This document shows positions 10,006 to 47,577 of a stretch of DNA of 60,849 nucleotides, one piece after another (within the stretch, counting starts at the first letter, position 1; each line of letters starts with the position of its first letter). Made by a program: the position numbers and the translations under genes. This stretch comes from a virus (Duplodnaviria > Caudoviricetes). The stretch covers positions 1 through 60,849 of the IMG/VR virus record IMGVR_UViG_3300007734_000735; one strand, written 5' to 3'. Under the pieces are notes generated by a model, which was not told the DNA's origin, did no database searches, and worked only from the letters and a program-made list of their open reading frames with translations.

Positions 10006-11421
10006 ATGGCAGAAAGACCTGACCTACAAGAGTTTGGCTCAACTGGTTTACGCCGTTCAGGTGGAACAGTTTATGAAGAATTTCTCGTCAATCTTAGAGG
10101 CATACGCGGTGCAAAGACTTACCGCGAAATGGCAGACAATGACCCAACAATCGGGTCAATGTTGTTTGCAGTTGAAAAAGTTATTACTCGTCTTGAATGG
10201 CGTGTAGACCCATATAGCGATGATTCAGCAGACGGTGAAGTAAATGCTAAAGATAAAGAAGTGGCGGCATTTGTCGAGTCGTGTATTCATGACATGTCCG
10301 ATTCATGGGATGCAACACTTTCACAAATTCTTTCAATGCTTGTATTTGGATTTTCTTATCACGAAATTGTTTACAAAGTCCGTAAGGGTGATGGCAATGA
10401 CCCAAAGAAGCGCTCAAAGCATAATGACGGAAAAATTGGTTGGCGCAAAATGCCTATCCGCGCACAAGAAACTTTATTCCGTTGGGAAATCGATGCAGAC
10501 GGTGGAATTCAAGCCATGTTGCAAGTGGACCCATCAACAGGTGGAATACATACAATTCCAATTGACAAGGCTTTGCTTTTCCGTACAGTAACAACAAAGA
10601 ATAACCCTGAAGGTCGCTCCATTCTTCGTAATGCTTATCGTCCTTGGTTTTTTAAGCGTCGCATTGAAGAAATTGAAGCAATCGGTATTGAGCGTGATTT
10701 AGCAGGATTGCCAGTTGCATACCTACCTCCTGAATATCTTTCTTCATCTGCATCAGCCGAACAACAGGCAGTATTAGCATCAATTCAAAGCATCGTTACA
10801 TCTATCAAGCGTAATGAACAAGAAGGCATTGTGATGCCAGCGATGTACGACGATGCTGGACATAAGATGTTTGACTTGCAGTTGCTTTCATCAGGTGGTT
10901 CTCGTCAGTTCGACACAGACAAGATTATCAATCGCTATGACCAGCGCATGGCAATGTCAATCCTTTCAGACTTTATTCTTCTCGGTTCAGACAGAGTTGG
11001 TTCTTACGCTCTCGGCGCATCCAAGATGGATTTATGGTCAATGGCAGTTGATTCAATTGCTAAGAACATCGCTGAGGTAATGAATCAGTACGCTATTCCT
11101 CGTTTGATGAAGTTGAATGGAATGGACATCTCTCGCGCTCCGTACTTAACTTACGGCGAAGTAAGCCATGTTGATTTAACTGAAATCTCAGACTTTGTAA
11201 CTAAGTTGGCTCAGGCTGGCGTTCTCATGCCTGACCCTAAGTTGGAAGATTATCTTCGCGAGTTGGCAGGTCTACCTCCAGCAGAACACGATGGAACAAA
11301 CTTTGGTATGCCTCCTATGCCTGAAGGTGCAGATAGCGCTGAATTTGATGCACCTCCATCTATGGAAGAAGAGTTAGAGATTCCTGAAGGAGCAGAACCG
11401 CTAGACGGCGATGTGGATTAA
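10006..11421 (+). CDS. Portal protein (Mu gp29/DUF935-like)
   Basis: NPEGRSILRNAY, GIERDLAGLP, GSYALG motifs; size and position. Confidence 0.88.
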   Translation: MAERPDLQEFGSTGLRRSGGTVYEEFLVNLRGIRGAKTYREMADNDPTIGSMLFAVEKVITRLEWRVDPYSDDSADGEVNAKDKEVAAFVESCIHDMSDSWDATLSQILSMLVFGFSYHEIVYKVRKGDGNDPKKRSKHNDGKIGWRKMPIRAQETLFRWEIDADGGIQAMLQVDPSTGGIHTIPIDKALLFRTVTTKNNPEGRSILRNAYRPWFFKRRIEEIEAIGIERDLAGLPVAYLPPEYLSSSASAEQQAVLASIQSIVTSIKRNEQEGIVMPAMYDDAGHKMFDLQLLSSGGSRQFDTDKIINRYDQRMAMSILSDFILLGSDRVGSYALGASKMDLWSMAVDSIAKNIAEVMNQYAIPRLMKLNGMDISRAPYLTYGEVSHVDLTEISDFVTKLAQAGVLMPDPKLEDYLRELAGLPPAEHDGTNFGMPPMPEGADSAEFDAPPSMEEELEIPEGAEPLDGDVD

Positions 11422-11423
11422 AA

Positions 11424-12431
11424 ATGCCTTTACACTTTGGCGGAGACGGAAAGCGTCGTAATCCATTAACGGTAGAGGAACAGGCGTTAGCCCGCGTTCT
11501 CTACGATGCTATTCGTAAATCAACTAACACAATTAAGGTTGAAGAGTTAGCGCGTATTATTAAGCGCCTTGACCCTGATTCTTTGAATCGACTTCTTAAT
11601 GCAATATCTGTTGCTGGAAACAGAAAACAGATTGAGGATGCTTTGATGGCATCTATTGACATAGGCGGGCAACAAGCAGTTCAACAGATTCAATCTATTG
11701 CGCCTAAATTAGCCTTACCTGCATTTATTCCTAAGCCTGTAAAAATTACAAACAAGGCTCCTATGGCTAACATGGATTTTACAAAGATTCCTTCTTGGGC
11801 AAGCCCAACGCCACCTCCAGTTACATTCTCATTGTCATTTAATAAAACAAACCCAAACTCTTTAGCCTTTGCATCTAAAAGAGCAGGGCAGTTGATTACT
11901 AGCATTGATGAATTAACCCGCATAGCAATTCGCAAGATTATTATTGATTCATTTAATGAGCAGTTGGATTATCGTGCTACCGCTCGTCGCATTAAAAACA
12001 TCATTGGATTACATCCCAAGTGGGCAGATGCAGTAACAAAGTTTGAAAAGCGTGAGTTAGAGCGTTTAATTAAAAGCGGAATGAAAGAGGCAAAAGCCCG
12101 CCAAGCATCTGCCGCGTCTGCATCTAAATATGCTGACAGATTACGCGGTGCAAGAGCCACGATGATTGCTCGAACCGAGATTCAGATTGCACAAAACGAG
12201 GGACGCTACGAAGGCTGGAAACAAGCCGATGAAGCAGGTCTCATAGACCCGAGTTCAATGAAGATGTGGAAAACAGCCGAAGATGAGCGCACCTGCGATA
12301 TTTGCGCCCCCCTTGATGGTGAGATTGTTCCTTGGAACGGTTTGTTCTCTATCGGGCTTGAGTTGCCTACTGTTCACCCTAATTGCCGTTGCCAAATGTT
12401 GATTCTTCCTCCTGATAGGGGAACGCTATGA
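11424..12431 (+). CDS. MuF / SPP1 gp7-like minor head protein
   Basis: IARTE...W.T..DERTC..C...HPNCRC. Confidence 0.9.
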   Translation: MPLHFGGDGKRRNPLTVEEQALARVLYDAIRKSTNTIKVEELARIIKRLDPDSLNRLLNAISVAGNRKQIEDALMASIDIGGQQAVQQIQSIAPKLALPAFIPKPVKITNKAPMANMDFTKIPSWASPTPPPVTFSLSFNKTNPNSLAFASKRAGQLITSIDELTRIAIRKIIIDSFNEQLDYRATARRIKNIIGLHPKWADAVTKFEKRELERLIKSGMKEAKARQASAASASKYADRLRGARATMIARTEIQIAQNEGRYEGWKQADEAGLIDPSSMKMWKTAEDERTCDICAPLDGEIVPWNGLFSIGLELPTVHPNCRCQMLILPPDRGTL

Positions 12432-14794
12432 CCCTAGTAATTAAATTTGAACCTGGGCTTCGTCCAGTATTGAAGCATGAGCAACATGACCAAGCCACCC
12501 ACGGCTCATGGGCTAACGGTACTTCTGAATCTTCTCTAATCTCGACTGATACACAAATTGCATTTGCTGAAGGGGCAATCAAAGCAACGGATAACATCTT
12601 GAGTCCAAGTGCCTATAAATCTCAGTTAGAAGGCAATCTTAATAGAACATATCCAAAAATTTATTTAGAAGAAGCGGTGAATAACCCCGCTTATCAGGAT
12701 GCTCTTCAAACACATCTTAAAAGTATTGGGTTTCCTGAAACGGTTAAGGTCTTTTCTAGTAGCGCTCAAGAAGGCGAATACTTCCATGGTTCTGTTGCAC
12801 CTTTGTGGGATTCAGGAGCAGTTGGTTATGAGAGTGAAGAATCACCAAAAGAATTTTTGGTAAACCGCTCAGACATTATTGGACTTGGAAAAGTAGCAGA
12901 TAGTGGAGTTTGGTTTAGAAATTCAAAGACAGTCAAAAAGCACCAAGAACACGACCAAAAGACGCACGGTAACTGGGCTACGGGCGGAGAAATGGAGAGT
13001 TGGAATCCCAACGACCCAATTCCAGCAAGTCCTCGAAACGCTGGAGGAATGACTCAGAAGATTTGGGATAACTGGGAACACGGTGTAGATGGAAATCAAT
13101 ATGTTGAGTTGTATCGCCAATACGCGGGAGAAGCACTTGGAATTGCCGTACCTAAAAGCAGTATGGATGTTGGCGGTAACTTAAATTATTTAACACAGCG
13201 GGGCTTTGGTGGCTCTTCAACGGATACGGTTAGAAAACAAGCCGAAACAATCTTGCAAACAATTGCGAATGGTAAACCTGAGCAACCAGCCTTGTATCGA
13301 GGAATGACCGCTACGGATGCAGATGGTCAAGCCTTATTAAATAGCATCACAAAACTCAAGGCTGGAGATACGCTGGATATGCCTTTAGTTTCAACAACTC
13401 GTTCTTTAGGAGTTGCAACATGGTACGCCACAGACCGCTCAACAAGCGGAACAGGCAATGTAATTATGAAAATCCAACCTGGAGCAAAAGGCGTATCTCT
13501 ATCTAAAGAGACAAGCCGTTATCCACAAGACTACGAAGTTATCACAAGCGGTAAATTTGAAGTGGTAAGCGTAAATACGATTCAGAGTTCTTATTGGCAA
13601 CGAGGCGTCCTTGAGCCTCGCAAAATTAGTTACACGGATGGCTCTGAGTCGCACTATGAAGTTGCTACCTACAGCCCTCGTAGATACAGCCCTGAAGAGG
13701 CAAAGACCATTTATGAAACAGTTACTAGCGGTAAATACAAATCCCTAGAAACCCCTACTTTCAAAATAACCAACGATAGGCACAATAATTACCCTGACCG
13801 ACCTAAACTATCCACATGGGAAAAACAACCAGCGAGGGAGTTTACCGTGGTGGAGGTTAAGTTCATTGAGCCTCATGTTGTTAGAAAGGCTGAGTCCAAA
13901 GATTACGGATTAACCTTTGATTCGTTATTTAATAACATCCCATTCATTCGTGAAGAAGATATGGAAAAGCACCAACAAGGTCTACACGACCAGCGTACTC
14001 ACGGTTCATGGGCTATGGGCGGGGCTGGGGCTGATATTACTGACGAGTTAGATAAAGTGTTTTTTAACAATAAGTTGAATGTCAAAGAGAGTAAAATTTT
14101 TCCTGGAAGTTTAAGAATACCTACTCAAGCGGAAATTGCTCGCGCTGGCATGAATGACGAAACAATCAAACTAATCGAGGAAATGTCTCAAAAACAAATT
14201 GAAAGCGGGCAAGCATACGGAGACAACGCTCTAAAGATTATTGCTGAACGCCAAGGGTTTACTGGCAAACCAAAAACAGTTGCAACTATAGAAGATTTAC
14301 AGAAGATTCAAAGCACCGAGGCTGGCATTTTGGTATATCGCGGAGTTACTGATTATTCAAGAGCGCAAGCATCAGGCGGTGGTTCAGTTCAACCAACTTA
14401 CACAGCCGAACAAGCATTGACTGATTTTAGAGAAGGTGAGTATTTTGGTGGCTGGGGCGTGTTTGGGAATGGAACCTATACAACTCAACGAATAGATGAG
14501 GCTGTTTCCTATTCAGAAACTATGGATTTAGATAATGGAAAACTTGGTAATGGTCGTGTAATGGCAATGCTAATTCCTAAAAATGCAAAGGCGCCTAGCG
14601 AAACTCTTGTAAAAAGTATTGTAAAAGATATGGTTTATGGCGGAGAACCCAGCCATCGCAATAACATTGGCAGAAGGCTTGCCTCCATGGGTTATCAGTA
14701 TTACGATGCTGGTCATGTTCAAAATGATAAATATGGAACTTATGTAATCCTTGATAGGTCAATGCTTACAGTTGCAGAAAAGGCGGTGGGTTGA
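12428..14794 (+). CDS. Tagged polyprotein 1: three KH..HDQxTHGxW modules, two with ART-like domains
   Basis: Tags at 12473, 12938, 13967; ALYRGM..VSTT..QDYEV and LVYRGV..FGNGTY..YVILDR. Confidence 0.7.
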   Translation: MTLVIKFEPGLRPVLKHEQHDQATHGSWANGTSESSLISTDTQIAFAEGAIKATDNILSPSAYKSQLEGNLNRTYPKIYLEEAVNNPAYQDALQTHLKSIGFPETVKVFSSSAQEGEYFHGSVAPLWDSGAVGYESEESPKEFLVNRSDIIGLGKVADSGVWFRNSKTVKKHQEHDQKTHGNWATGGEMESWNPNDPIPASPRNAGGMTQKIWDNWEHGVDGNQYVELYRQYAGEALGIAVPKSSMDVGGNLNYLTQRGFGGSSTDTVRKQAETILQTIANGKPEQPALYRGMTATDADGQALLNSITKLKAGDTLDMPLVSTTRSLGVATWYATDRSTSGTGNVIMKIQPGAKGVSLSKETSRYPQDYEVITSGKFEVVSVNTIQSSYWQRGVLEPRKISYTDGSESHYEVATYSPRRYSPEEAKTIYETVTSGKYKSLETPTFKITNDRHNNYPDRPKLSTWEKQPAREFTVVEVKFIEPHVVRKAESKDYGLTFDSLFNNIPFIREEDMEKHQQGLHDQRTHGSWAMGGAGADITDELDKVFFNNKLNVKESKIFPGSLRIPTQAEIARAGMNDETIKLIEEMSQKQIESGQAYGDNALKIIAERQGFTGKPKTVATIEDLQKIQSTEAGILVYRGVTDYSRAQASGGGSVQPTYTAEQALTDFREGEYFGGWGVFGNGTYTTQRIDEAVSYSETMDLDNGKLGNGRVMAMLIPKNAKAPSETLVKSIVKDMVYGGEPSHRNNIGRRLASMGYQYYDAGHVQNDKYGTYVILDRSMLTVAEKAVG

Positions 14795-15660
14795 TGCTTA
14801 CTCCAGTCCAGTCTCAGCGCTATGCCCAATTGGTAAACAACTTTAAGGAAAAAGAATTCTATGCTTACCATGAGCATCTTCTCGCGGGCGGGAGAGTTGA
14901 AGATTTCTTTGACAAGATGGAAAAGCACGGTACCCATGACCAAAAGACACATGGTTCATGGGCTGATAGTAATTCTTATGATGAGGTCGAGGCAAAGAAT
15001 GAAATCCTTATGGATGAATGGCGAAAAAAATATGGGATATTGAGTGAGTATTTAGAATCCAAAGGCTTGACCCGCTCATGGAATGAAATTCAAGCCGACC
15101 CCAAAGCAAAAAAGATGCAAGAGGCAGTTGATGCAATTTGGAAAAAAATGCAAACAAATCAGAATAAATTTTATGATGAACATTTTGAAAAGAATGAAAC
15201 TGAGGATTTTGATAGGTTAAGAGATAAATATGTTGTTGCCGACACGCCAACTTTGAAAATGAACAAGCAATTGCGTGAGGGTGGGGGACTTACCCAAAGA
15301 GTTAAAGATGCTGACGCCTTGTGTGCCATGGGGGTCGTTAAAGAACGAGTTGGTGTTTACAGGGGAGCATTTCTTCCAAAAGAACTAATCGATACAATTA
15401 AAGTTGGAACTTCATTTACCGATAAAGGTTTTCAGTCTACCGATGTAGATAAATCTTCTGCTCAGTTTTATGCAAGAAGTAGAAAAGAAGGTGGGGCGCA
15501 GGGAGAACTTGTTTTATTCCGTTATACATTAGAAAAGGGATTAAACGCCATTGATGTTAGTTATGGAGAGGTTGTAGTTCAACGAAATGCAACGATAACT
15601 GTAACTAAAAAAACTAAAAGTGGCGAATATACAATTATTGATGCGACGGTGAATAAATGA
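14791..15660 (+). CDS. Tagged VIP2-like ADP-ribosyltransferase
   Basis: Tag at 14923; MNKQLR, VYRG, DKGFQSTD, GEVVVQR. Confidence 0.75.
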   Translation: MMLTPVQSQRYAQLVNNFKEKEFYAYHEHLLAGGRVEDFFDKMEKHGTHDQKTHGSWADSNSYDEVEAKNEILMDEWRKKYGILSEYLESKGLTRSWNEIQADPKAKKMQEAVDAIWKKMQTNQNKFYDEHFEKNETEDFDRLRDKYVVADTPTLKMNKQLREGGGLTQRVKDADALCAMGVVKERVGVYRGAFLPKELIDTIKVGTSFTDKGFQSTDVDKSSAQFYARSRKEGGAQGELVLFRYTLEKGLNAIDVSYGEVVVQRNATITVTKKTKSGEYTIIDATVNK

Positions 15661-16397
15661 ATAAAGAATTACGCGTCACAATGGATGTTGAAGATTTCCT
15701 TTCAATGTTTTCACAAGTTGATTCTTTTGAGAAGCATCAAGAACATGACCAGCAAACTCACGGCAATTGGGCTTCAGGTAATTATGAGAATCTTGCCGAT
15801 TGGTTTAAAGATGAAGTAAAAGTCTTTGCGTCCGAGACAGATAAAGAAGTTTATTTCATGACTAAACTATTTAGCCAACGCCTCAAAGGTTTCACAGAAA
15901 TGGCTTATCCTGAGTTCTCGGGAGCAATAAATAATTATGAAAGTCGTCTTGGTTATGACATGAATGAGGCTTTGCGTGACCCTCAAATAAGTGAAGATGG
16001 CTATAAATCAACTATTGATTTACTTGATAAGGCGATAGAGACCGCTCCTGCATTGAGTGAAGAGTTGGTTGCTTACCGAGGAGTTAAAGGCAACGGATTA
16101 AAGTTTTTTGAAAATCTTAAAGTTGGAGATACTTACCAAGACAAAGGCTACACATCGACAACAATTGATGCTGGAGTTGCTCAACAATTTGGCGGACAAC
16201 AACCGTATTATGACGGTTTAGTTTTCCGTATGAAGTTACCCGCTGGTACAAAAGGAATCTTTCCTGCGGGCTATCACGAACCTGTAAACGGTTGGACACC
16301 ATCTACGACTGAGGCTGAGTTCTTATTACCGAGAGATAGTAAATTTACTATTGTTGCCCAGCGTGGCAAGGTTTGGGATGTAGAGTACAAACCATGA
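15657..16397 (+). CDS. Tagged VIP2-like ADP-ribosyltransferase (ExE motif)
   Basis: Tag at 15732; MNEALR, AYRGV, DKGYTSTT, EAEFLLPR. Confidence 0.85.
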   Translation: MNKELRVTMDVEDFLSMFSQVDSFEKHQEHDQQTHGNWASGNYENLADWFKDEVKVFASETDKEVYFMTKLFSQRLKGFTEMAYPEFSGAINNYESRLGYDMNEALRDPQISEDGYKSTIDLLDKAIETAPALSEELVAYRGVKGNGLKFFENLKVGDTYQDKGYTSTTIDAGVAQQFGGQQPYYDGLVFRMKLPAGTKGIFPAGYHEPVNGWTPSTTEAEFLLPRDSKFTIVAQRGKVWDVEYKP

Positions 16398-18985
16398 ACC
16401 TAGAGAAGTTCCAACACGCATCCTTGAACGGTCTTTCACTTGTACTGGAAAAGCACGGCTCCCACGACCAAAAGACGCACGGTAACTGGGCAAACCTCAC
16501 AGTTGATGGGCAAACAGTTGAAGGCAAAACCATCACGGGCTTGATAGATAAGTTAAGCGAGAAGAAAACTCCAGGATTTAGTATCGACATCCGCACTAAG
16601 CAATCTGCCAAAGATGGCTTTATTGCCTCTGATGTAGGAGCCGAGAGAGTGCTTGATTTCGCCCCTCTGAAGGCTTCTAGGGCGAGTTTGAGGACTGCTT
16701 TGAAGGATTACATCAACGACCATGCTGAGTTGCTTGATAACAAGGGTAGTTTCTTTGGCGCTTGGGTAGAGCAAGGAAAACTTTACTTAGATGTCTCAAG
16801 AAGGTATAATTCTCGGTCAGAGGGTGTACGAGCAGGATTTAGAAACGAACAAAAAGCAATCTACGATGTAGTCAATGACTCGTACATTTACATGAAGGAT
16901 GAGGTCGATGAGCGAACAAACAAAGCCCGTCTTGGTGGAAACTCCGAAGCCAGTCAAGGAAATGACGGAGAAGGAGAAGGACGCCTTCGTGGACGAAATT
17001 TTGCAAGCGATAGAGGGCAATCTCTAAATCGCCATGTCTGCCTTGGCAGATACACAGTACAAAAACACCGAGAAGGCGAGCATGACCAAGCCACACATGG
17101 CAATTGGGCTGGGGATAGATACCCTGTTGATTCAGTTAAGAGCGCTAGAGATGGCGCAAAAGAATACGCTTTCAAAAAAGGCTTAAAACCTGACGAAACA
17201 ATTGATTACACAAAGGTTGTTGCTAATCGCGAACGAGCATCACGCATTGCTGACATCTATGAAACTTTGCCAAAGAAAGATGTTGAAGCAATTGATGAGT
17301 ATGAGGCGCTGGCATCTGAAGTAGAAGAGCAATTCGACTTTATGACCAAGACTCTTGGGGTCAAGGTTGAGTTCGTTGCTACTGACCCATACAGGACATC
17401 TCAGGAAATGTTTCAAGATGTCAGCCGTGGAAACCTTAAAGTTTTGCAAACAGAGACAACAGGCGCACATCCACTTTTCTCAGATGCTCAAAACAATAAA
17501 TTCCGAGCAGTTCACGATTACTTTGGACACGCGGCTACTGGTCGCGGATTTGGTCAAGATGGCGAAGAGTCCGCATGGGTACATCACTCTCAAATGTTTA
17601 CAGAGAAGGCTCGAGCGGCTCTAACTACTGAGACCCGAGGACAAAATTCATTCTTCAATAATCGCGGAAAACAGTTCGCTGACCAAAAGGTTGCCTTGCT
17701 TCCCGAAGAGTTTTGGGCTGTCCCAGCAACATTTCAGAAGATTAAAGTTATTCGTTTTGCCGCTGGATTGAAGCCAGTAATTAAGCACGAACAACACGAC
17801 CAATCTACTCATGGTAGTTGGGCGCGAGGCAATACGGCTGAAGAGGACGCCTTAATTAACGAAATGGAAGGCGTTGGTCCTTCGCTACAAGATTTAGAAA
17901 ATGCTCTGACCCCCGCCGAACAGCCTGACTACACCGACCTAAAAGATTATGTTAAGAATGATGCGGGTATGTACGAGGCAGCAATTGAGGGAATTGAAGA
18001 AAGAATGAAAGAGCGTTATCAGAATTTAACCGAGGATGAATACAATAAAATAAAAGAACGAGAATTAGATATAATGGTTGAAGAATACATTGATAATGAT
18101 GATGGAACCATTGCACAATTATGGCAAGAGCAAAACGGTACTGAGGAATTTAACGCTGAAGAGTTACATCCTTTCTTTGATGAGGTTTATGCCATGAGCC
18201 ATGATGTCTTAAATGCTCAGGGTGAAGTTGCCACAACTCTTAGTTCATCAACAAATAACATTTATCTTGATGGTGAAAGATTAGTTGTAACTGGCGAAAT
18301 TATGGATGATGCTGGTAATTGGGCTGGAGAGTTCCAACGCGGTTTCTTCAAAAGCCAAGATAGAGAAGGCAACGAAATTTGGGCTGTTGAGCATGACTTA
18401 TTCAAAATGGATGATGAATACGCAGGAGTTGGATTTGGCTCAAAGTTTATAGCCCGACAAGAGGCTTGGTATACCGCTGTGGGAATAGGCAGAATTGATG
18501 TAGGCACCGCTTGGGATGGCGCTCGACATTGGGCTAAATCAGGGTATGACTTCGACGAAAGAGGTATGCGCCAAAATGTAAATGAATTGATAAAGGGAAG
18601 AGCATTTAATCCTGATGATTTTGCTGAAGGTTCAGCAAACCGCCTTGAGTTTGATTCTTTAATTTCAAAAATGGTTACTGATTACGACCCAAGTTCGAGG
18701 TCATTTAATTCAACAAAACCAATTAGATTAGATGATTTTCCTATCCCAAACGATTTCTTGATGATTGGCTATAAAGATAGAGTTCAAATAGGCACTAATC
18801 AAATTACAGGAAAGCCTGTCTATTCATGGGCTGGTGCAAGATTGCTGAACAATCTCAACATGAAGTACCAAAAGGGCTTAAGCAAGGAAGGTCGTTCAAT
18901 CACTCAGGGTCCAATTGACCGCGATGGCGATGGCTTGGTTTATGACGGCACCGCTCGCGAAAAGCCCGCTCCTACGGTAAACTAG
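16394..18985 (+). CDS. Tagged polyprotein 2: two unassigned domains plus C-terminal GNAT acetyltransferase
   Basis: ATGA-coupled start 16394; tags at 16451, 17063, 17783; YAGVGFGSKF...GARHWAKSGYDF. Confidence 0.7.
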   Translation: MNLEKFQHASLNGLSLVLEKHGSHDQKTHGNWANLTVDGQTVEGKTITGLIDKLSEKKTPGFSIDIRTKQSAKDGFIASDVGAERVLDFAPLKASRASLRTALKDYINDHAELLDNKGSFFGAWVEQGKLYLDVSRRYNSRSEGVRAGFRNEQKAIYDVVNDSYIYMKDEVDERTNKARLGGNSEASQGNDGEGEGRLRGRNFASDRGQSLNRHVCLGRYTVQKHREGEHDQATHGNWAGDRYPVDSVKSARDGAKEYAFKKGLKPDETIDYTKVVANRERASRIADIYETLPKKDVEAIDEYEALASEVEEQFDFMTKTLGVKVEFVATDPYRTSQEMFQDVSRGNLKVLQTETTGAHPLFSDAQNNKFRAVHDYFGHAATGRGFGQDGEESAWVHHSQMFTEKARAALTTETRGQNSFFNNRGKQFADQKVALLPEEFWAVPATFQKIKVIRFAAGLKPVIKHEQHDQSTHGSWARGNTAEEDALINEMEGVGPSLQDLENALTPAEQPDYTDLKDYVKNDAGMYEAAIEGIEERMKERYQNLTEDEYNKIKERELDIMVEEYIDNDDGTIAQLWQEQNGTEEFNAEELHPFFDEVYAMSHDVLNAQGEVATTLSSSTNNIYLDGERLVVTGEIMDDAGNWAGEFQRGFFKSQDREGNEIWAVEHDLFKMDDEYAGVGFGSKFIARQEAWYTAVGIGRIDVGTAWDGARHWAKSGYDFDERGMRQNVNELIKGRAFNPDDFAEGSANRLEFDSLISKMVTDYDPSSRSFNSTKPIRLDDFPIPNDFLMIGYKDRVQIGTNQITGKPVYSWAGARLLNNLNMKYQKGLSKEGRSITQGPIDRDGDGLVYDGTAREKPAPTVN
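16908..17027 (+). CDS. Nested out-of-frame 39 aa protein (candidate immunity)
   Basis: GAGGT RBS then MSEQTKPVLVETPKPVKEMTEKEKDAFVDEILQAIEGNL*; host frame there is a G/R-rich linker. Confidence 0.5.
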   Translation: MSEQTKPVLVETPKPVKEMTEKEKDAFVDEILQAIEGNL

Positions 18986-18989
18986 CCTT

Positions 18990-19136
18990 ATGAAGAGACA
19001 AGAGAGATTAGACGCCTTATCGAAACTCCATGCCTCCATGCCTGTTGAGATGGAAGGTTTGCCTGACGATAACGAGGTCGCTTTCTTGGATAAGGTAGTA
19101 GAACAAAAACTAACTACGGTTCAGGAAACTAAATAA
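18990..19136 (+). CDS. 48 aa protein, probably leaderless (candidate GNAT antitoxin)
   Basis: TAAACT 6 nt before ATG; MKRQERLDALSKLH... Confidence 0.55.
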   Translation: MKRQERLDALSKLHASMPVEMEGLPDDNEVAFLDKVVEQKLTTVQETK

Positions 19137-19167
19137 CAGTTGTAAATCTATCCGCTATCATTGCAAC

Positions 19168-21375
19168 ATGGCGGATATAGCCCCAAAGTTAATTTCTTTA
19201 AGCGTTGAGAAACTACTCGCGCTTCATGAGCGTATTCATAAGTCTGAAGCCTCTTCAGCAACAATCGAGGTTCACCACACAATTCTCAATGAGTTGGCTC
19301 GTCGCAAGATGGAGGCTCCCAAAGATAATTGGGACGACTTTGAAATTCTTGTTGATTCCATTAACGATGTAGACCTGACATCCTTTGGCTCATCCTTGCC
19401 AGCCGAAATGGTTGCAGAAGTTATTAAATCTAGCGGTAGCAATGTCGGCAATGTGCAGACTTTCCTCACCTCGCAAGGTTATGAAATGCGAATTGAGCCG
19501 ATTGAACTAGACCCTATCGAGAAGATGATTCGCGAAGAAGATGGCGAGTTCACAGTTTATGATTCAACGGGACGACGCAGATTTGGCACTTATCCATCAA
19601 AGAAAAAGGCTGAAGAGCGCCTTGCACAAATTGAAAGATTTTCTAAAGCAGATAACACTCCACCCAAGGCAGTTCGCTCCGCCGCTCGTCGCGCACTTGA
19701 TTGGATTGGCGAAGGTAAGGCTGGTGGAGGATTTACTTCAGTTGGTCGCGCCCGCGCATCGCAGTTGGCTTCAGGAGAATCTGTCTCGTTAGAAACTCTC
19801 AAGCGAATGAAATCTTTTTTCTCACGCCATGAAGTAGATAAGAACGCGCTTGGATTTAGCCAAGGAGAAAAGGGTTATCCATCTCCAGGTCGCGTTGCTT
19901 GGGATGCTTGGGGCGGAGATGCAGGATTCGCATGGGCTGAGTCCATGGTTGCTCGCGCCGAAAGAGAAGAAGAAGTTGCAAAACATAATCCTGGCAAACA
20001 CGACCAAAAAACTCATGGCTCTTGGGCTGATGGCATTGCAGATGCAATCAACAACGGCGAACACCCAATGGTTGAAAAAGAAAATGTTTCGGCGTTTCTA
20101 CTTAAAGCATCAACCCGCACAGACCACCCTGACTTAACTGAATTGAGCATTGAAGGAACATTGCTCTACGGCGATGAAGGTATGGGAATTGCCCGTAAGG
20201 ACATGCCGCAAATTCCTGGCAAAGAACGCGCTCGTTTCTTAGAAGAGATTGAAAAGAGCGATGGCATTACAGTTGAAAAAGAGAAGGTAGACCCAACAAC
20301 CTTAAAACCAATTCAAAAAGAAATCTCTGCCGCTCGCTCAGGTGCTATCTATAAGAAGTTTCAAGAGGATGGCGAGATTCCAAAGAACGAACGCATACTT
20401 ATTTCTAAAGATGGTTTTGTAATCGATGGACACCATACATGGGGCGCCGCGGTTGCTTTTGCTTTTGATAATCCTGGAACTGAGTTGCCTGTCTATCGTT
20501 TATCTGTCACAGCAAAAGAAGCGTTAGCCATCTCATCAAAGTGGTCGAAGGATAATGGTTTTGAGGGTCAAGCAATTGACGCGAAAGAGCCAGCCAAGAA
20601 AAACCTCACATGGCAAACACTTACAAAGCATGGAAATCATGACCAGCGCACCCATGGCTCATGGGCGAATAACATGGTTTCAGACATTGAACCTGAGCAG
20701 GGACAATCAAAAGAAGCCATTGCACTTGCTCGCGCAGTTCGAGAAAAAGCAGTTGCGGCTGAGCCAGTAATCACAAAATTAGTTGAAGGTATTGCAGAGC
20801 AATCAGGTGCAAAACTTGAAGGTCTTTCACAACGCATTAAATCAACAGATTCTCTTGCACGAAAGATTGACCAAGATGCCGAGCAGGGATACCAAGGAGA
20901 TAGAAAGAAAGCGGCTGAAGAAATCTCTGATGCAAACCGTTACACAATCTCAGTCAATGACACAGATTATTTAGATACACTAAATTCTGCTGTTACTGCA
21001 TTTGAGGCAACTGGGTGGAAAGTCCGAGTTAAAAACTTTTGGCAGTCAGGCGACCCTTACGATGGTGTGAACATCAAGGCAGAGCGTGATGGCATTAAAG
21101 TTGAGTTGCAGGTACACACTCCAAAGTCATACCAAACCAAAGAAAAAGCCCTTCACGACATTTACAAGGAATACAGAAAATCTATCGATGATGCAGTCCG
21201 TCGTAGCAATTGGGACAAGATGGTAAGCATTGCTAAGCGGGTTCCTCGCCCAGCCAATTACGCTACCGTTCTTGGAATTGGTTCATTAGTTATTCAGCAA
21301 TTTGAGACCGCTCAACAGGCTGGCTTGATAAAATCAACTGGGGTTGGTAAACTATCCCATGAGGGGAGGGCATAA
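19168..21375 (+). CDS. Tagged polyprotein 3: small head-associated domains, ParB/Srx-like domain, RelA/SpoT small alarmone synthetase
   Basis: Tags at 19981, 20626; VIDGHHTW; RIKSTDSLARKI..DANRY..YDGVN..VELQVHT..H. Confidence 0.8.
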   Translation: MADIAPKLISLSVEKLLALHERIHKSEASSATIEVHHTILNELARRKMEAPKDNWDDFEILVDSINDVDLTSFGSSLPAEMVAEVIKSSGSNVGNVQTFLTSQGYEMRIEPIELDPIEKMIREEDGEFTVYDSTGRRRFGTYPSKKKAEERLAQIERFSKADNTPPKAVRSAARRALDWIGEGKAGGGFTSVGRARASQLASGESVSLETLKRMKSFFSRHEVDKNALGFSQGEKGYPSPGRVAWDAWGGDAGFAWAESMVARAEREEEVAKHNPGKHDQKTHGSWADGIADAINNGEHPMVEKENVSAFLLKASTRTDHPDLTELSIEGTLLYGDEGMGIARKDMPQIPGKERARFLEEIEKSDGITVEKEKVDPTTLKPIQKEISAARSGAIYKKFQEDGEIPKNERILISKDGFVIDGHHTWGAAVAFAFDNPGTELPVYRLSVTAKEALAISSKWSKDNGFEGQAIDAKEPAKKNLTWQTLTKHGNHDQRTHGSWANNMVSDIEPEQGQSKEAIALARAVREKAVAAEPVITKLVEGIAEQSGAKLEGLSQRIKSTDSLARKIDQDAEQGYQGDRKKAAEEISDANRYTISVNDTDYLDTLNSAVTAFEATGWKVRVKNFWQSGDPYDGVNIKAERDGIKVELQVHTPKSYQTKEKALHDIYKEYRKSIDDAVRRSNWDKMVSIAKRVPRPANYATVLGIGSLVIQQFETAQQAGLIKSTGVGKLSHEGRA

Positions 21376-22081
21376 TAAATTGCGATACTTTGTAAACTTT
21401 TACCGTAATAAGCCACATACTCTATGGCGTTTTGATGTTGAGCCTGACCGTGTTCTCGAAGAGCGCTGGGATGGCTTGTCATGGACTCCCACGACCTACA
21501 TCGCCGAGTACCTCATAGATGGCGAAGCAAACATTGATGAGATTACTCCTGAGTTGGCTATGAAAACTTTTCCAGTTGCTTTCAATGATGTTGCTAAATC
21601 TATTGGCGCTTATGAAGTTTCTAAGGCTGAGGGCGAGAAGCGATACACACTAGGGGCTATGTACATCCCTGACCGCCTTGATGCACACAATGAGTGGACA
21701 GATGCCGAGGAGTTGCAAAGAGCAGTTTGGGATTATGTCCGCAGTAATGACCGCCGTATTCGACTACAACACAATCGCGAAATTGTTGCAGGTGAATGGG
21801 TTGAAGTTATGTCATTCCCATACGAATTAACAGTTCCAATTACAACCCCAAGTGGAATTATGGTCAATCACACTTATCCTGCGAACACGGTTTTCCTTGG
21901 TGTTATTTGGGAGGAATGGGCATGGGAGAAGATTCAACGCGGAGAGATTCTTGGCTATTCAATTGGTGGACGAGCAGAGCGCCTATATGTGGACATGGAA
22001 AAGAACGACCCAACTGTTACCGATGTGCATGTTGATACAATTATGAAACCATCGAAAAAGAAGCCAAAGGAAGCCAAATGA
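21359..22081 (+). CDS. XkdF-like prohead serine protease with extra N-terminal domain
   Basis: YIPDRLDAH..EELQRA..LQH..WEKIQRGEILGYSIGG; start uncertain (ATG 21359 or TTG 21380). Confidence 0.8.
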   Translation: MRGGHNKLRYFVNFYRNKPHTLWRFDVEPDRVLEERWDGLSWTPTTYIAEYLIDGEANIDEITPELAMKTFPVAFNDVAKSIGAYEVSKAEGEKRYTLGAMYIPDRLDAHNEWTDAEELQRAVWDYVRSNDRRIRLQHNREIVAGEWVEVMSFPYELTVPITTPSGIMVNHTYPANTVFLGVIWEEWAWEKIQRGEILGYSIGGRAERLYVDMEKNDPTVTDVHVDTIMKPSKKKPKEAK

Positions 22082-22482
22082 AAGACAAAAAGATTCTCAA
22101 AGAACTCCGCAATGGTCCTATGAAAAACATGAAGGACGAGGAGTACGCCATGATTGAAGAAGAAGTCAATCAAAAGGGAATCAAAGGTCTTAAAGGTTAC
22201 GCCAAGTCAATGATTGAAAAGGCTATGCGAGATATGGCTTATTCAATGAAAAAGGCTCTTTCTGTTTCAACAGGTGACATGGTTTCTTGGAATTCATCAG
22301 GTGGCATGGCTACAGGCAAGATTGTCCGTATTGTGCGTGAGGGCAAAATCAATGTTCCTGATTCAAGTTTTGAGATTGAAGGAACCGAAGATGACCCAGC
22401 CGCTTTGATTCAGTTGTACCGCGATGGCAAGCCAACTGAGACAAAAGTTGGACATAAGGTTTCAACACTAAAAAAAGCCTAA
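22078..22482 (+). CDS. Tudor/SH3-like (DUF2945-type) head-region protein; -1 frame extension to 22715
   Basis: GDMVSWNSSGG..GKI..GTEDDPA..VGHK.STL. Confidence 0.7.
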   Translation: MKDKKILKELRNGPMKNMKDEEYAMIEEEVNQKGIKGLKGYAKSMIEKAMRDMAYSMKKALSVSTGDMVSWNSSGGMATGKIVRIVREGKINVPDSSFEIEGTEDDPAALIQLYRDGKPTETKVGHKVSTLKKA

Positions 22483-22711
22483 GCCTAGACAAACATCTAG
22501 GCACCGTTCACGACCAAAAAACTCACGGTGGAAAATACAACACCGATGATGCTGAGGGTGAGGATAGTTCTGAACCAAAGAACTTCAGGGGCAAAAAGCC
22601 AAAGGTAAGTTACGACGAAAACGACACAGACGGTGAGTTCGACAATAACGCCGATGACCCAAAATGGATGGATGACATGGACATCTTGAGACCACCTGCT
22701 AGAAACAAGCG

Positions 22712-22975
22712 ATGAAAACAATTATTGATAGCACAATTGAGATTCTGAGTTCAATGAATCTCAAGGCAAATAAGGTCACAACGCCTCCTGGCTATGCAGG
22801 AATTCAAATTGATTTACCCAACGACTCCCAAGCCTTTTTTGTGTGGAGCAAAATGGATGACGATGACTTCCATTTCAGGACAGCGCGTTTTTGGGCAAAC
22901 GACAATCCTTTTTCAATGTGGATTTGTCCAAACTTGCCCGAGGCTCTAGCCCAAACGAGGGTTTTAATAAACTAA
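22712..22975 (+). CDS. Hypothetical protein
   Basis: 87 aa; ATGA overlap with the frameshift-extension stop. Confidence 0.65.
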   Translation: MKTIIDSTIEILSSMNLKANKVTTPPGYAGIQIDLPNDSQAFFVWSKMDDDDFHFRTARFWANDNPFSMWICPNLPEALAQTRVLIN

Positions 22976-23078
22976 CAAAAGGGTCAAATTACGCTTGTGG
23001 TATTCTTCGTATGTTTAGACCCGATGTAATTTCTTAGCGCGTTGCTAAGGGACTATATCTATTTCGTTAGGAGTCACA

Positions 23079-23876
23079 TTGGCTGGTCGTACTCGTAAGA
23101 TGGTGAATTTAGCCATCGAGGAAACTAGCGGGGTAGACCATCCCGCTCATCTACACGAAGGTTGGCTTGTAATGAAGTCAGCCGAAGAATCTGAAGTTCA
23201 GAGGGTTTTAGACGAATCGCTCACCGAGGAGGACTCCACAATGGAGGATACATCTACCACGGCTACTGAAGAGCAGGTTGTAAATCCTACTGAGGAACTA
23301 ACCATCGCTAAGGCTCGCATCTCTGAACTTGAAGAGGCATTAGCCAAGGCTTCTGCGGACGCTGAAATGTCCGAAGAAGATAAGAAAAAGAAAAAGATGG
23401 AAGAGGAATCCTCTGAGGAGATGGACTACATGAAGTCCGCACCTGAGTCAGTCGTCAAAATGATTGAGAACTTCCGCAAGCAAGCAGAAGAAGCAACCGC
23501 AGAACTTAAAAAAGAACGCGATGCTCATGCTGATGCAGAAGCAGTTGAAAAAGCAAAGAGTTGGGCAAACCTCAATCTCGATGCAGAAAAAGTTGGTCCA
23601 GCACTACGCCGTCTATCAAATGTAGACGCAGAACTAGCAAAGTCAGTTGAAGAACTACTTGCTTCAGTCAATGCACAGGCTGAATCAGCACAAATTTTTG
23701 CGGAAATCGGCAAATCCGCAGACTTCAAATCAGGAAATGCTTATGAGCGTATGACTACGCTTGCTAAGTCAGCCGTTGAAGAGGGTGTAGCAAAGTCATT
23801 CGAGCAAGCGCTCGCTGATGTTGCTACAAAGAACCCTGACCTTTACAGCCAATACCTATCCGAGAAAGGTGCCTAA
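23079..23876 (+). CDS. Capsid scaffolding protein
   Basis: EETSGVDHPA..LVMKS start, acidic coiled coil, C-terminal NPDLY; upstream of capsid genes. Confidence 0.75.
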   Translation: MAGRTRKMVNLAIEETSGVDHPAHLHEGWLVMKSAEESEVQRVLDESLTEEDSTMEDTSTTATEEQVVNPTEELTIAKARISELEEALAKASADAEMSEEDKKKKKMEEESSEEMDYMKSAPESVVKMIENFRKQAEEATAELKKERDAHADAEAVEKAKSWANLNLDAEKVGPALRRLSNVDAELAKSVEELLASVNAQAESAQIFAEIGKSADFKSGNAYERMTTLAKSAVEEGVAKSFEQALADVATKNPDLYSQYLSEKGA

Positions 23877-23879
23877 ACC

Positions 23880-24275
23880 ATGGCATACGAAATCTCCAAT
23901 TACTCGGTAAAGGTCACTCTCGTTGCAGCGGCAGACCTTTCCAGTAAGCAGTACACATTCGTCAAGTTGGATTCAGATGGCAAAGTTGCGGCTGCTTCAG
24001 GCGCAACTGACATCCCAATTGGCGTACTACAAAACGCTCCAACCGCAGGACAAGAAGCAGAAGTGCTTGTTGTTGGCGGTACAAAGGTTGTCGCTGGTGC
24101 GGCAATTGGCGAGGGCGCACTTGTTGGAACAGGTGCTACAGGCAAGGCAGTTGCTCTTGTTGCTGGTACAGATACCACCAAGTATGTTGTTGGAACACTT
24201 CTAACCGAATCTGCGGCAGATGGAAACATCGTCACAGCCGTCATCAACTGCGCTAATCCAGGCAGAGCGGCATAA
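23880..24275 (+). CDS. Capsid decoration/cement protein (DUF2190-like)
   Basis: Small Ala/Gly/Val-rich protein between scaffold and MCP. Confidence 0.75.
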   Translation: MAYEISNYSVKVTLVAAADLSSKQYTFVKLDSDGKVAAASGATDIPIGVLQNAPTAGQEAEVLVVGGTKVVAGAAIGEGALVGTGATGKAVALVAGTDTTKYVVGTLLTESAADGNIVTAVINCANPGRAA

Positions 24276-45831: not shown

Positions 45832-46512
45832 ATGACAGACACAACAGCACTTCCAATTGCTCAAGCAATGAGCGCAATTATGAAAGATGTTGGAGCCATT
45901 GCAAAGAAGGACAAGAACACTTCACAGGGATTTAATTTCCGTGGGATTGATTCAGTCGTTAATGCAGTATCTCCAGCACTTCAAAAGTACGGCGTAATCG
46001 TTGTTCCTTCAGTTGAAGATTACGAATACACCACAGTTGAAATCGGACGCAACCGAACAGCCATGGGTCATGTGAAAGTAAAAGTCACATACACATTTAT
46101 CGGTGCTAATTCTGATGCAATCAAAGCCACGGTAGTAGGTGAGGCAATGGATTCAGGAGACAAGGCAACTGCGAAGGCAATGTCTGTGGCTTTTCGAACT
46201 GCTTTACTTCAAGCGCTCTCACTCCCAACGGATGAGCCTGACCCTGACGCAACGAGTTATGAGCGTTCAAGTGCCAAAGATGTCTTAGCGCCAAGTGCAA
46301 TCTTGACAAAGATTACACAAGCAACATCTATCGATGCGCTCGCTGAAATTGGTCAGTACATCACCACTCACAAAGATGGATACAACGCGGAATTACTCGA
46401 GCAATTTCGTTTGAAGTTTAAGGAACAACAGGCGAACTTAATCGTACCTAAATTGGAAGAGGACACCAATGAGACAACAACAGAGGAGCCAATCGTTACT
46501 GTTAATGCCTGA
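45832..46512 (+). CDS. erf: ERF family single-strand annealing protein
   Basis: FNFRGIDSV, GEAMDSGDKATAKAMSVAFR, DPD. Confidence 0.85.
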   Translation: MTDTTALPIAQAMSAIMKDVGAIAKKDKNTSQGFNFRGIDSVVNAVSPALQKYGVIVVPSVEDYEYTTVEIGRNRTAMGHVKVKVTYTFIGANSDAIKATVVGEAMDSGDKATAKAMSVAFRTALLQALSLPTDEPDPDATSYERSSAKDVLAPSAILTKITQATSIDALAEIGQYITTHKDGYNAELLEQFRLKFKEQQANLIVPKLEEDTNETTTEEPIVTVNA

Positions 46513-46864
46513 GTTGCCTTACGACCAAACTTCAGGACATAGCGGTACAGATACTTCGAAGGCAAGAGCATTACGCGCCGATAGGTCAGGTCAGACTGCA
46601 CGAAATCAAAAGGCGGCACTTGACCTTCTTGCTCAACGATTAGCGTTAGGCATGACATGGAAAGAGTTCAGCGAGGTTACTGGACTTCACCATGGAAGCG
46701 CTTCGGGTGTATTGTCCGTTCTTCATAAGACGGAGCGGATTGCACGGCTCAAAGAGACGCGTAATCGATGCAAGGTCTATGTATCGTTGGACTGGATTCA
46801 AAACCGAGAAACAGAAAAGCAGGGCGTCAAAAAAAGTTGCCCTCATTGCGGAGGTCATTTGTGA
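46505..46864 (+). CDS. HTH DNA-binding protein
   Basis: GTDTS..RA, GMTWKE...LHHGSASGVLS.L; C-terminal CPHC. Confidence 0.6.
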   Translation: MPELPYDQTSGHSGTDTSKARALRADRSGQTARNQKAALDLLAQRLALGMTWKEFSEVTGLHHGSASGVLSVLHKTERIARLKETRNRCKVYVSLDWIQNRETEKQGVKKSCPHCGGHL

Positions 46865-47577
46865 GCATCAGATGGATTACAAAAGTTTGGTCTGATTCGC
46901 CATACGACGGGACTCGACTTTTGATTCATCTTGCGCTGGCAGACATCTCTCATGATGATGGGCGTTTTTTTGCATCTCAAAAAATGCTTGCAAGTAAGGG
47001 ACGCTGTTCTGTTGAATATGTTCGCAAAGTCATCAATCAGATGGTTGAAGAGGGACATATCAAGATAATCAGCAAGGGTAACTCTCGAGGTAAGGCTACG
47101 ACTTATCAATTATTGTGGAAGAAACTACCCAACTCTGTTGGGGAGGCGCTACCTATTGAAGATGACGAACTCCCCAACTCAGATACCCTCGACTCCCCAA
47201 CTTTGGAGGTCTCACTCCCCAACTCCACTCCGCAGCATCCGTCCTATACACCCGTCCTATCTACAACAAAGAGCGACGAAACTGCTATCGCAGTTATCGC
47301 GCTCGCTGAAGTAGTTGCTAGACGATGGTGGGAAAAGCAAAGAGTCAAACCTTTAGGCAAAGGGGCGTGGCACTCCCTCCTTCAGATAACTAAGGCAGCC
47401 GAAGCCCGAGGTTATAGCGAGCAACAGATTGAGTTGGCACTTGATTACATCGGGACAGTTCCCACAATGCGTCAAATGGATTTAGTTCTCAGAGGTGTAG
47501 GAATTAAGACCAAACATGAAACTGGAGCAATTAGGGCAATTGAGTTATCAGAAAAGTTACGGCATGAAACTTCCTGA
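46861..47577 (+). CDS. Replication initiator (N-terminal winged HTH)
   Basis: GTGA start; LALAD..DDG..F.SQ..LA...S...V; internal iterons. Confidence 0.75.
   Translation: MSIRWITKVWSDSPYDGTRLLIHLALADISHDDGRFFASQKMLASKGRCSVEYVRKVINQMVEEGHIKIISKGNSRGKATTYQLLWKKLPNSVGEALPIEDDELPNSDTLDSPTLEVSLPNSTPQHPSYTPVLSTTKSDETAIAVIALAEVVARRWWEKQRVKPLGKGAWHSLLQITKAAEARGYSEQQIELALDYIGTVPTMRQMDLVLRGVGIKTKHETGAIRAIELSEKLRHETS
47124..47225. repeat. Iteron-like repeats, putative replication origin
   Basis: ACT(A/C)CCCAACT at 47124, 47169, 47192, 47214, plus inverted GTTGGGGAG at 47137. Confidence 0.7.

Follow-up and report, generated by a model that had tools for sequence, protein, structure and literature searches.

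A Probable Programmed −1 Recoding Site between the Tudor Domain and a Tagged Acidic Tail in a Phage Head-Assembly Gene

The 60,849-base virus record IMGVR_UViG_3300007734_000735 (Duplodnaviria; Caudoviricetes), referred to over its whole length as the window, represents an uncultured phage and is rated complete by CheckV. Within its head-assembly operon lies an open reading frame (ORF) for a 134-amino acid (aa) protein with a Tudor-like domain. This ORF stops just after a run of seven adenines (A7), where a second frame, displaced by −1, is open for a short conserved tag followed by an acidic tail. The two-frame layout is real, conserved and coding, and the A7 run at 22470–22476 is very probably a programmed −1 recoding site.

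The Junction

The Tudor ORF terminates CTA AAA AAA GCC TAA, just as the original prediction had read it, and the A_AAA_AAA heptamer has the X_XXY_YYZ form of a slippery site in the zero frame (Table 1). Upstream, the −1 frame is closed by the TAA at 22455–22457, four codons before the run. After that stop the frame reads GFNTKKSLSLDKHLGTVHDQKTHGGKY, or ...KKSLSLDKHLGTVHDQKTHGGKY, then an acidic peptide. The −1 frame ends at the TGA at 22713–22715, inside an ATGA overlap with the next ORF. The trans-frame product is about 212 aa long (131 + 81), of which the added tagged acidic tail makes up about 80 residues.

The open −1 stretch of the window has no start codon of its own ahead of the tag. 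Its earliest ATG, GTG or TTG comes 198 nucleotides (nt) after the run begins, whereas the tag is already reached at +39 nt. The −1 codons from the zero-frame stop to the tag, read by eye, include no CTG, ATT, ATC or ATA either. The upstream closure, the lack of a start before the tag, the acidic peptide and the stop in the ATGA overlap had all been predicted, and all are present in the sequence.

A7 runs are strongly under-represented in the window, with 14 observed versus 46 expected from dinucleotide-preserving shuffles, and each of 100 shuffles of the window held at least 14 such runs. At just one of the 14, the run at the Tudor junction, does a long frame end within 3 codons while another stays open for 81. 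No paralogue of the tail was found in the window.

Conservation of the Two-Frame Layout

Viral contigs were scanned with the 134-aa protein; 217 matches were confirmed, and the best 80 were kept and all classified. A two-frame arrangement in which the −1 frame holds the tag is found in 46 of these 80 loci, from 37 dataset prefixes. In all 46, the zero-frame stop lies one or two codons past the run. Similarly, in all 46 the first ATG, GTG or TTG of the −1 stretch comes at least 180 nt after the run, with the tag at +33 or +39 nt.

The cassette of the window, i.e., A7, then GCC or GCA, then TAA or TGA, recurs in 10 of the 46 loci, from 10 dataset prefixes. Conservation of the A7 run in related phages had been named as a check on the frameshift, and it holds. 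The other 36 loci have A9 or A10, then one codon and a stop, and need the same −1 shift. Most of these (21) read AAG-stop, with a canonical A_AAA_AAG in frame, while 11 read AAT TAG, 2 AAC TAG and 2 AAA TAG.

Tudor domain, tag and tail are encoded in a single frame in 14 of the 80 loci, the more distant ones. Three are in frame by virtue of an A10 run (L028, L049 and L057), seven have A9 plus one extra base further downstream, and four have no A run at all. For the window and 13 relatives, the two pieces of the protein together cover the in-frame homologues exactly and join at TLKK. The 14 single-frame loci show the fused protein to be the functional product. An in-frame fusion in relatives had also been put forward as an outcome that would count against the frameshift. 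Literally, such fusions exist; the frameshift is not refuted by them, because the fused forms are more distant and 11 of the 14 either lack a slippery run or carry the indel outside it. L028 (A10, in frame) is otherwise near-identical to L030 (A9, two-frame), which is either a real run-length polymorphism or an assembly difference.

The remaining loci are varied. Four (L053–56) read A6G-TAG and have a −1 stretch of just 12–16 aa that runs into the next gene. The tail is absent from L019, L020 ends before the site, and 13 of the 80 loci have other architectures. L061 (L061:245–616) shares the A7 cassette, stop and hairpin (see below) of the window; its −1 tail, however, is a different one, 123 aa long and lacking the tag. 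An internal ATG at 386 of L061 could start that tail independently.

In a midpoint-rooted tree of the Tudor core (65 rows, 207 columns; L055, L056, L020 and L071–83 omitted), the in-frame forms branch at the base and the two-frame forms fall into one group of 52 rows, with L028 nested inside it. Two changes of state suffice to explain the layout on this tree, the support of which is modest (9 of 54 inner branches starred). The basal position of the in-frame forms and the small number of state changes indicate that the two-frame layout arose from a fused gene and has been kept through considerable divergence.

The −1 stop is also closely tied to what follows. It overlaps, abuts or lies at most 11 nt from the start of the next gene in 28 of the 29 junctions listed; for the other, L035, the script found no following ORF. 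Since the −1 ORF of the window ends in an ATGA overlap, shifted ribosomes can couple into the next gene. That gene, conserved at 87–88 aa and belonging to no known family, starts at or beside the stop of the −1 frame, and the window shows no strong ribosome-binding site for it. It follows that its expression may depend on shifted ribosomes.

Selection on the −1 Extension

The selection set comprised 47 two-frame sequences, the window included, which gave 36 distinct extensions. None of the 36 has a stop or a frame break. The ratio of nonsynonymous to synonymous variation (pN/pS) is 0.31, with a mean pN of 0.223 and a mean pS of 0.712 over 630 pairs. By codon position, 48, 45 and 80 of 92 columns are variable. 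The extensions have in common the tag, a DDSEGEDxSEPKN motif, a second DDSE.EF motif and DDP[KR]WMDxMD. The −1 extension is under purifying selection, and hence coding. The central claim of the original prediction, a −1 frameshift at the A7 run, is thus supported by a conserved cassette, a start-less −1 frame and the pN/pS of the extension.

Length of the A Run

Assembled contigs from four sequencing runs were aligned to the site, and a contig was taken to bridge the A run if it covered at least 31 nt on each side. No indel was reported at the run in the contigs of the four runs, and two contigs bridge it. One of these (X18 record 5) comes from an RNA library of a different study; it covers 22155–22765 with 29 substitutions and 0 gaps, and reads A7. 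At the A run, one DNA contig of a third study changes over to an A9-type relative. Contigs X4 and X6, which do not reach 31 nt on both sides, were left uncounted. Read support for A7 had also been proposed beforehand as a check; at the contig level, the RNA-library contig crosses the run without a gap.

Stimulators and the Slipping Machine

Known stimulators at the dnaX frameshift site of Escherichia coli lie 10 nt (5′ element) and 6 nt (3′ stem-loop) from the slippery sequence. In the window, a 7-bp hairpin, GCCUAGA-N6-UCUAGGC, starts after a 6-nt spacer, within the 5–9 nt downstream of the heptamer where a stable RNA structure was looked for. Its energy is −10.8 kcal/mol (z −4.07), and none of 200 shuffles was as stable. 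The hairpin is present in all 12 A7-type sequences, including L061 with its differing tail, and 98.8% of the cells are paired. In the arms, 0 of 5 third-codon positions vary, versus 53 of 68 downstream (Fisher p 0.001). Upstream, the AAGG element is invariant in 11 of the 12 A7-type sequences though it spans synonymous sites; it is weak and lies within coding sequence. A search of Rfam found no family at the site.

The A9/A10 lineage differs. Consensus structure prediction on 16 of its sequences gave 0 pairs. Many A9-type loci (L021, L023, L024, L027 and others) do have a hairpin, CCAUGAC-N7-GUCAUGG, about 23 nt past the A9 run. This hairpin is built of tag codons (His-Asp ... Ser-His-Gly) and is not conserved across the A9-type group.

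The contrast between an A7 run with an invariant hairpin and an A9 run without conserved structure suggests that the ribosome shifts in the window, and that RNA polymerase slips in the sister lineages. The window site is probably a ribosomal −1 frameshift cassette. The sister A9/A10 sites may use polymerase slippage, shifting on A_AAA_AAG, or both. Which machine slips, in what ratio the two products are made and what the tail does are inferred.

The main competitor is that RNA polymerase makes the shift in the window as well: slippage on A7/T7 would add one A to a fraction of the transcripts, and standard translation would then yield the fusion. Where a hairpin is known to stimulate transcriptional slippage, it forms upstream in the nascent RNA. 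The stable hairpin of the A7 lineage, by contrast, is 6 nt downstream of the run, where a ribosomal stimulator sits; it is found in that lineage only, and its synonymous sites are invariant. Further, the window's run is just A7, short of the nine or so A or T residues looked for in a transcriptional slippage site, and the RNA-library contig across the site reads A7, though contigs drop minority forms. On the other side, polymerase slippage and ribosomal shifting yield the same protein, and 36 of the 46 two-frame relatives have A9 or A10 without conserved downstream structure. Runs of nine A or nine T are a documented substrate on which polymerase slips efficiently, as described in the part of PMC5009743 available to us. 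On balance, we consider polymerase slippage in the window unlikely.

Given these results, the following is proposed for the window. Most ribosomes would read CTA AAA AAA GCC TAA and make the 134-aa protein, consisting of the helices and the Tudor barrel. A fraction would slip back one base on A_AAA_AAA, read on for 79 codons and make the protein of about 212 aa. As in dnaX, the hairpin 6 nt downstream would promote the shift, perhaps together with the AAGG 10 nt upstream. The tail gained in this way is predicted to be disordered and would carry the KH..HDQ..HG tag, two acidic DDSEGE-like motifs and a basic W-M-D-x-M-D-I-L-R-P-P end. Ribosomes that had shifted could also couple into the next gene.

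Several observations weigh against a programmed ribosomal shift. The run-length support consists of assembled contigs, which hide minority transcripts and A-run heterogeneity, and one of the two bridging contigs comes from a run that may be the window's own source. The hairpin shows no covariation in the 12 sequences, with no change on both sides of any pair, as its stem is almost constant (6 of 7 pairs do not change). Because it also lies in coding sequence, constraint on the protein could account for some of its conservation. According to the accessible portion of PMC5009743, A_AAA_AAA is less shift-prone than A_AAA_AAG in E. coli. The A10 runs that fuse the frames in L028, L049 and L057 indicate that run length can differ at the DNA level. 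Finally, the absence of the tail from L019 and its length of 12–16 aa in L053–56 indicate that the tail is dispensable in some relatives.

Other Explanations of the Layout

A DNA-level contingency locus would have run length vary in the phage population, with the tail switched on and off by mutation. Near-identical A9 and A10 variants do exist (L030 versus L028), and L028 is nested in the two-frame clade. Among the 52 loci with a junction run of at least seven A and the tag behind it, however, run length (A10) explains the in-frame state in just 3, while 46 have the tag displaced to the −1 frame; the classified loci include no +1-frame variant. An unexpressed tail would not hold the low pN/pS described above over 36 stop-free distinct sequences, and the hairpin would have no role. 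We regard such a locus as highly improbable.

A homopolymer error in sequencing or assembly, the alternative that accompanied the original prediction, would mean that the phage really carries A8, with one continuous gene for 213 aa. In favour of this, the window was assembled from a metagenome, three relatives (L028, L049 and L057) are one A longer and in frame, and L028 is near-identical to the two-frame L030. Against this, A7-GCC/GCA-stop is found in 10 contigs from 10 prefixes and in the gap-free RNA-library contig, and 36 more loci, with A9 or A10, are out of frame in the same direction. The shift in one direction, the stop one or two codons past the run in all 46 loci and the dedicated hairpin behind A7 form a pattern that is not expected from random errors, and an error at this site can in practice be dismissed.

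A decaying split gene, in which the tail is an untranslated relic or is made from a non-canonical start or by reinitiation, would fit the missing or short tail of L019 and L053–56, but is scarcely credible given the purifying selection and intact frames in 36 distinct sequences, the lack of ATG, GTG or TTG before the tag in 46 of 46 loci (and of CTG, ATT, ATC or ATA in the window), the tight coupling of the −1 stop to the next gene, and the 230-nt non-coding gap that loss of the tail would leave in an ATGA-linked operon.

The Tudor Protein and Its Tail

The 134-aa ORF matches Hva1_TUDOR (PF11160) with 33.5 bits, versus a Pfam gathering cut-off of 24.1. AlphaFold2 was run on the in-frame homologue L049 (201 aa, 38-row alignment). 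The model has three helices and a six-strand barrel at a predicted local distance difference test score (pLDDT) of 82–91; the tag and tail are disordered, with a pLDDT of about 40. Foldseek against the Protein Data Bank (PDB) returned generic Tudor, PWWP and CAP-Gly barrels and 4p5n, weakly, at E 4e-3 or worse. Against predicted viral structures, it returned proteins named XkdF, prohead protease and Hva1 TUDOR at E 1e-9 to 5e-11. PHROGs holds no family for the ORF or the tail, and PDB sequence searches with the two gave nothing meaningful.

A tblastn search found two distant Tudor-domain matches, in Limnohabitans phage DC31 and Roseobacter phage CRP-811, both without the tag. In DC31, the Tudor domain runs on in frame into coiled-coil, scaffold-like sequence. 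In CRP-811, it lies inside an 816-aa protein annotated as the major capsid protein. The Tudor module is thus a regular component of the polyproteins of phage head assembly. L053, L059 and L064 have longer zero-frame ORFs, which were considered as protease–Tudor fusions; this reading was rejected, as Pfam shows no protease domain there.

The tail may direct the long form into the procapsid. Our guess is that it is procapsid-directed and scaffold-like, and that it would be handled at the tag in the way the ten cargo modules are, by cleavage or loading. A complex prediction for the protease and the tail gave no answer (score 0.00), which speaks neither for nor against binding.

The Tag

The pattern KH-x(2-4)-HDQ-x-[TS]HG has 11 matches in a six-frame scan of the window, all on the plus strand between 12.4 and 22.6 kb, and none in 100 shuffles of the window. 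The eleventh copy, in the −1 frame, thus stands beside ten others, as had been claimed. None of the 11 copies, that of the −1 frame included, varies at K, H, H, D, Q, T, H or G. The eleventh copy reads HGGKY and is without the [SN]-W-A that follows HG in the other ten; the A9-type relatives read HGAWANGK or HGDWR at this point.

In the polyvalent effector arrays of phages, the tag is widely found as a separator. A profile built from the 11 tags matches 630 protein cluster representatives at E ≤0.001, 194 of them at 1e-10 or better, and one 7059-aa protein holds 20 matched stretches. Pfam was run on 16 of the 150 tag matches listed (P0004–P0153). Nine of the 16 have a family at E ≤1e-5 and seven do not; the families are ADP-ribosyltransferases (4), GNAT (2), NUDIX (1) and two DUFs. 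In P0005 (2201 aa), nine tags alternate with eight ADP-ribosyltransferase domains at a spacing of 219–269 aa. In small tagged proteins, a tag often lies within a few residues of the N-terminus, with another close to the C-terminus.

In four relatives (L053, L059, L064 and L069), an extra tag and a module of 100–150 aa, with no known family, sit between the helical N-terminus and the Tudor barrel. By this insertion inside the Tudor gene, “tag plus module” behaves as an insertable unit. The original prediction had spoken of an eleventh tagged module at the recoding site. The idea of a unit made of tag and module is upheld; the part added by the shift, however, is the tag plus a 60-residue disordered acidic tail and not an enzyme domain.

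The tag may be a processing or loading signal for capsid-carried proteins. A literature search of limited depth found no description of the tag or of this frameshift. The KH..HDQ..HG motif is not mentioned in the accessible portion of the main text of PMC5512222, on polyvalent proteins.

Gene Order around the Site

The coordinates of the site and of its neighbours are collected in Table 1. The protease stop and the Tudor-gene start overlap as ATGA (22078–22081). Among cultured phages, blastn found nothing similar to 21344–23100. For ORF 19168–21375, a first impression of ParB-like and RelA/SpoT-like parts was dropped, as Pfam gave nothing there at E ≤0.01. Elsewhere in the window, an A7 run at 46829–46835 lies inside a 97-nt overlap of the plus-strand ORFs 46469–46864 and 46768–47577. 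Each of these has its own ATG, and the arrangement may be an ordinary overlap rather than a second recoding site.

Table 1. Positions of the recoding site, its neighbouring genes and related insertions (window positions unless a locus is named; for the insertions, the region that holds the insertion).
Feature	Position	Strand	Remark
Portal gene	10006–11421	+	
MuF-like protein gene	11424–12431	+	Pfam Phage_Mu_F
Five ORFs of tagged effector modules with the ten other tags	12428–21375	+	Downstream of portal and MuF
ADPrib_exo_Tox Pfam match	ORF 15657–16397	+	Within the effector-module ORFs
XkdF-like prohead serine protease gene	21344–22081	+	Pfam Peptidase_S78_2, E 9.3e-13; PHROG head maturation protease
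Zero-frame ORF, 134 aa, short product	22078–22482	+	Three N-terminal helices and Hva1/Tudor-like barrel
AAGG, weak Shine-Dalgarno-like element, possible 5′ stimulator	22456–22459	+	Ends 10 nt before slip site
Slippery heptamer A_AAA_AAA (cta AAA AAA gcc, zero frame)	22470–22476	+	Same in 10 related loci
−1 frame extension, 81 codons and TGA	22470–22715	+	Aligns with C-terminal halves of in-frame homologues
Zero-frame stop TAA, one codon past heptamer	22480–22482	+	TAA or TGA in relatives
Hairpin GCCUAGA-N6-UCUAGGC, 7 bp, 6 nt past heptamer	22483–22502	+	Predicted 3′ frameshift stimulator
Eleventh tag KHLGTVHDQKTHG, −1 frame	22491–22529	+	Tag at +39 nt
87-aa gene, no family	22712–22975	+	ATG overlaps −1 frame stop (ATGA)
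Scaffold-like acidic protein gene	23079–23876		
PHROG “head scaffolding” protein gene	23880–24275		
Major capsid protein gene	24291–25268		
Extra tag and module insertion	L053:1883–2734		
Extra tag and module insertion	L059:2009–2734		
Extra tag and module insertion	L064:1847–2734		
Extra tag and module insertion	L069:1472–2422		

Comparison with Known Recoding Systems

Frameshifting of this kind is already known, and the phage Tudor gene is a new example of it. In T7 gene 10A/10B and the major head protein of Lactobacillus phage A2, a −1 shift occurs near the 3′ end of the gene; the tail-chaperone pair G/GT is another case of a shift. As in these cases, a minor, C-terminally extended form would stand beside a major short form, here as predicted from sequence. 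Unlike them, the gene encodes a Tudor-domain protein between prohead protease and scaffold-like genes, and the extension is a disordered tagged tail. Capsid genes are mentioned among frameshift cases in the part of PMC10885494 that we could consult.

The closest likeness is to dnaX. In E. coli, that gene combines A_AAA_AAG with a 3′ stem-loop and a 5′ Shine-Dalgarno stimulator (PMC5009743, available in part), and the window likewise has an A-rich zero-frame heptamer, a 3′ stem-loop a few nt on and a possible 5′ Shine-Dalgarno-like element, in the manner of the tau/gamma arrangement. In some bacterial dnaX genes covered in the same part of that source, the long product requires the shift and the zero-frame stop lies directly behind the site. 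The window resembles these “reversed” genes, with its stop directly after the site and the longer product the shifted one. The site differs from dnaX in its heptamer, A_AAA_AAA instead of A_AAA_AAG, in its gene, a phage head-module Tudor protein, and in having no Rfam match. The sister lineages, with A9 or A10, a stop next and no conserved structure, are like Thermus thermophilus dnaX and insertion sequence (IS) elements, where slippage occurs on nine A or T; the window, with A7 and a hairpin, is not.

Internal proteins of phage T4 carry capsid-targeting sequences. The tag could be compared to these peptides, as a short signal at the N-terminus of each module. It also recalls the phage polyvalent proteins of Iyer et al. 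2017 (PMC5512222, available in part), in that it separates ADP-ribosyltransferase, NUDIX, GNAT and other modules in arrays beside MuF and portal.

Significance

Of interest here are the two solutions found at one junction, A7 with a hairpin and A9, and a widespread, apparently undescribed tag. Gene callers miss the tail and leave a 230-nt “gap”; a recoded annotation would correct dozens of metagenomic phage genomes. The closely related versions, A7 with a hairpin and A9 without structure, together with natural in-frame controls, make the locus a compact system in which to study the choice between ribosomal and polymerase recoding.

A broader proposal, which we offer as speculative and rather doubtful, ties these points together. 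The tag would be a general loading or processing signal for capsid-carried, injected proteins, in a system with the Tudor gene at its head-assembly end. Recoding would then set the number of tagged-tail Tudor proteins that tie cargo to the procapsid, and sister lineages would solve the same dosing problem by ribosomal (A7 and hairpin) versus polymerase (A9) slippage. If this is true, the locus is a natural comparison of two recoding routes. Whether the tag acts as a cleavage site or as a packaging signal would, in turn, show how phages load and release injected effectors.

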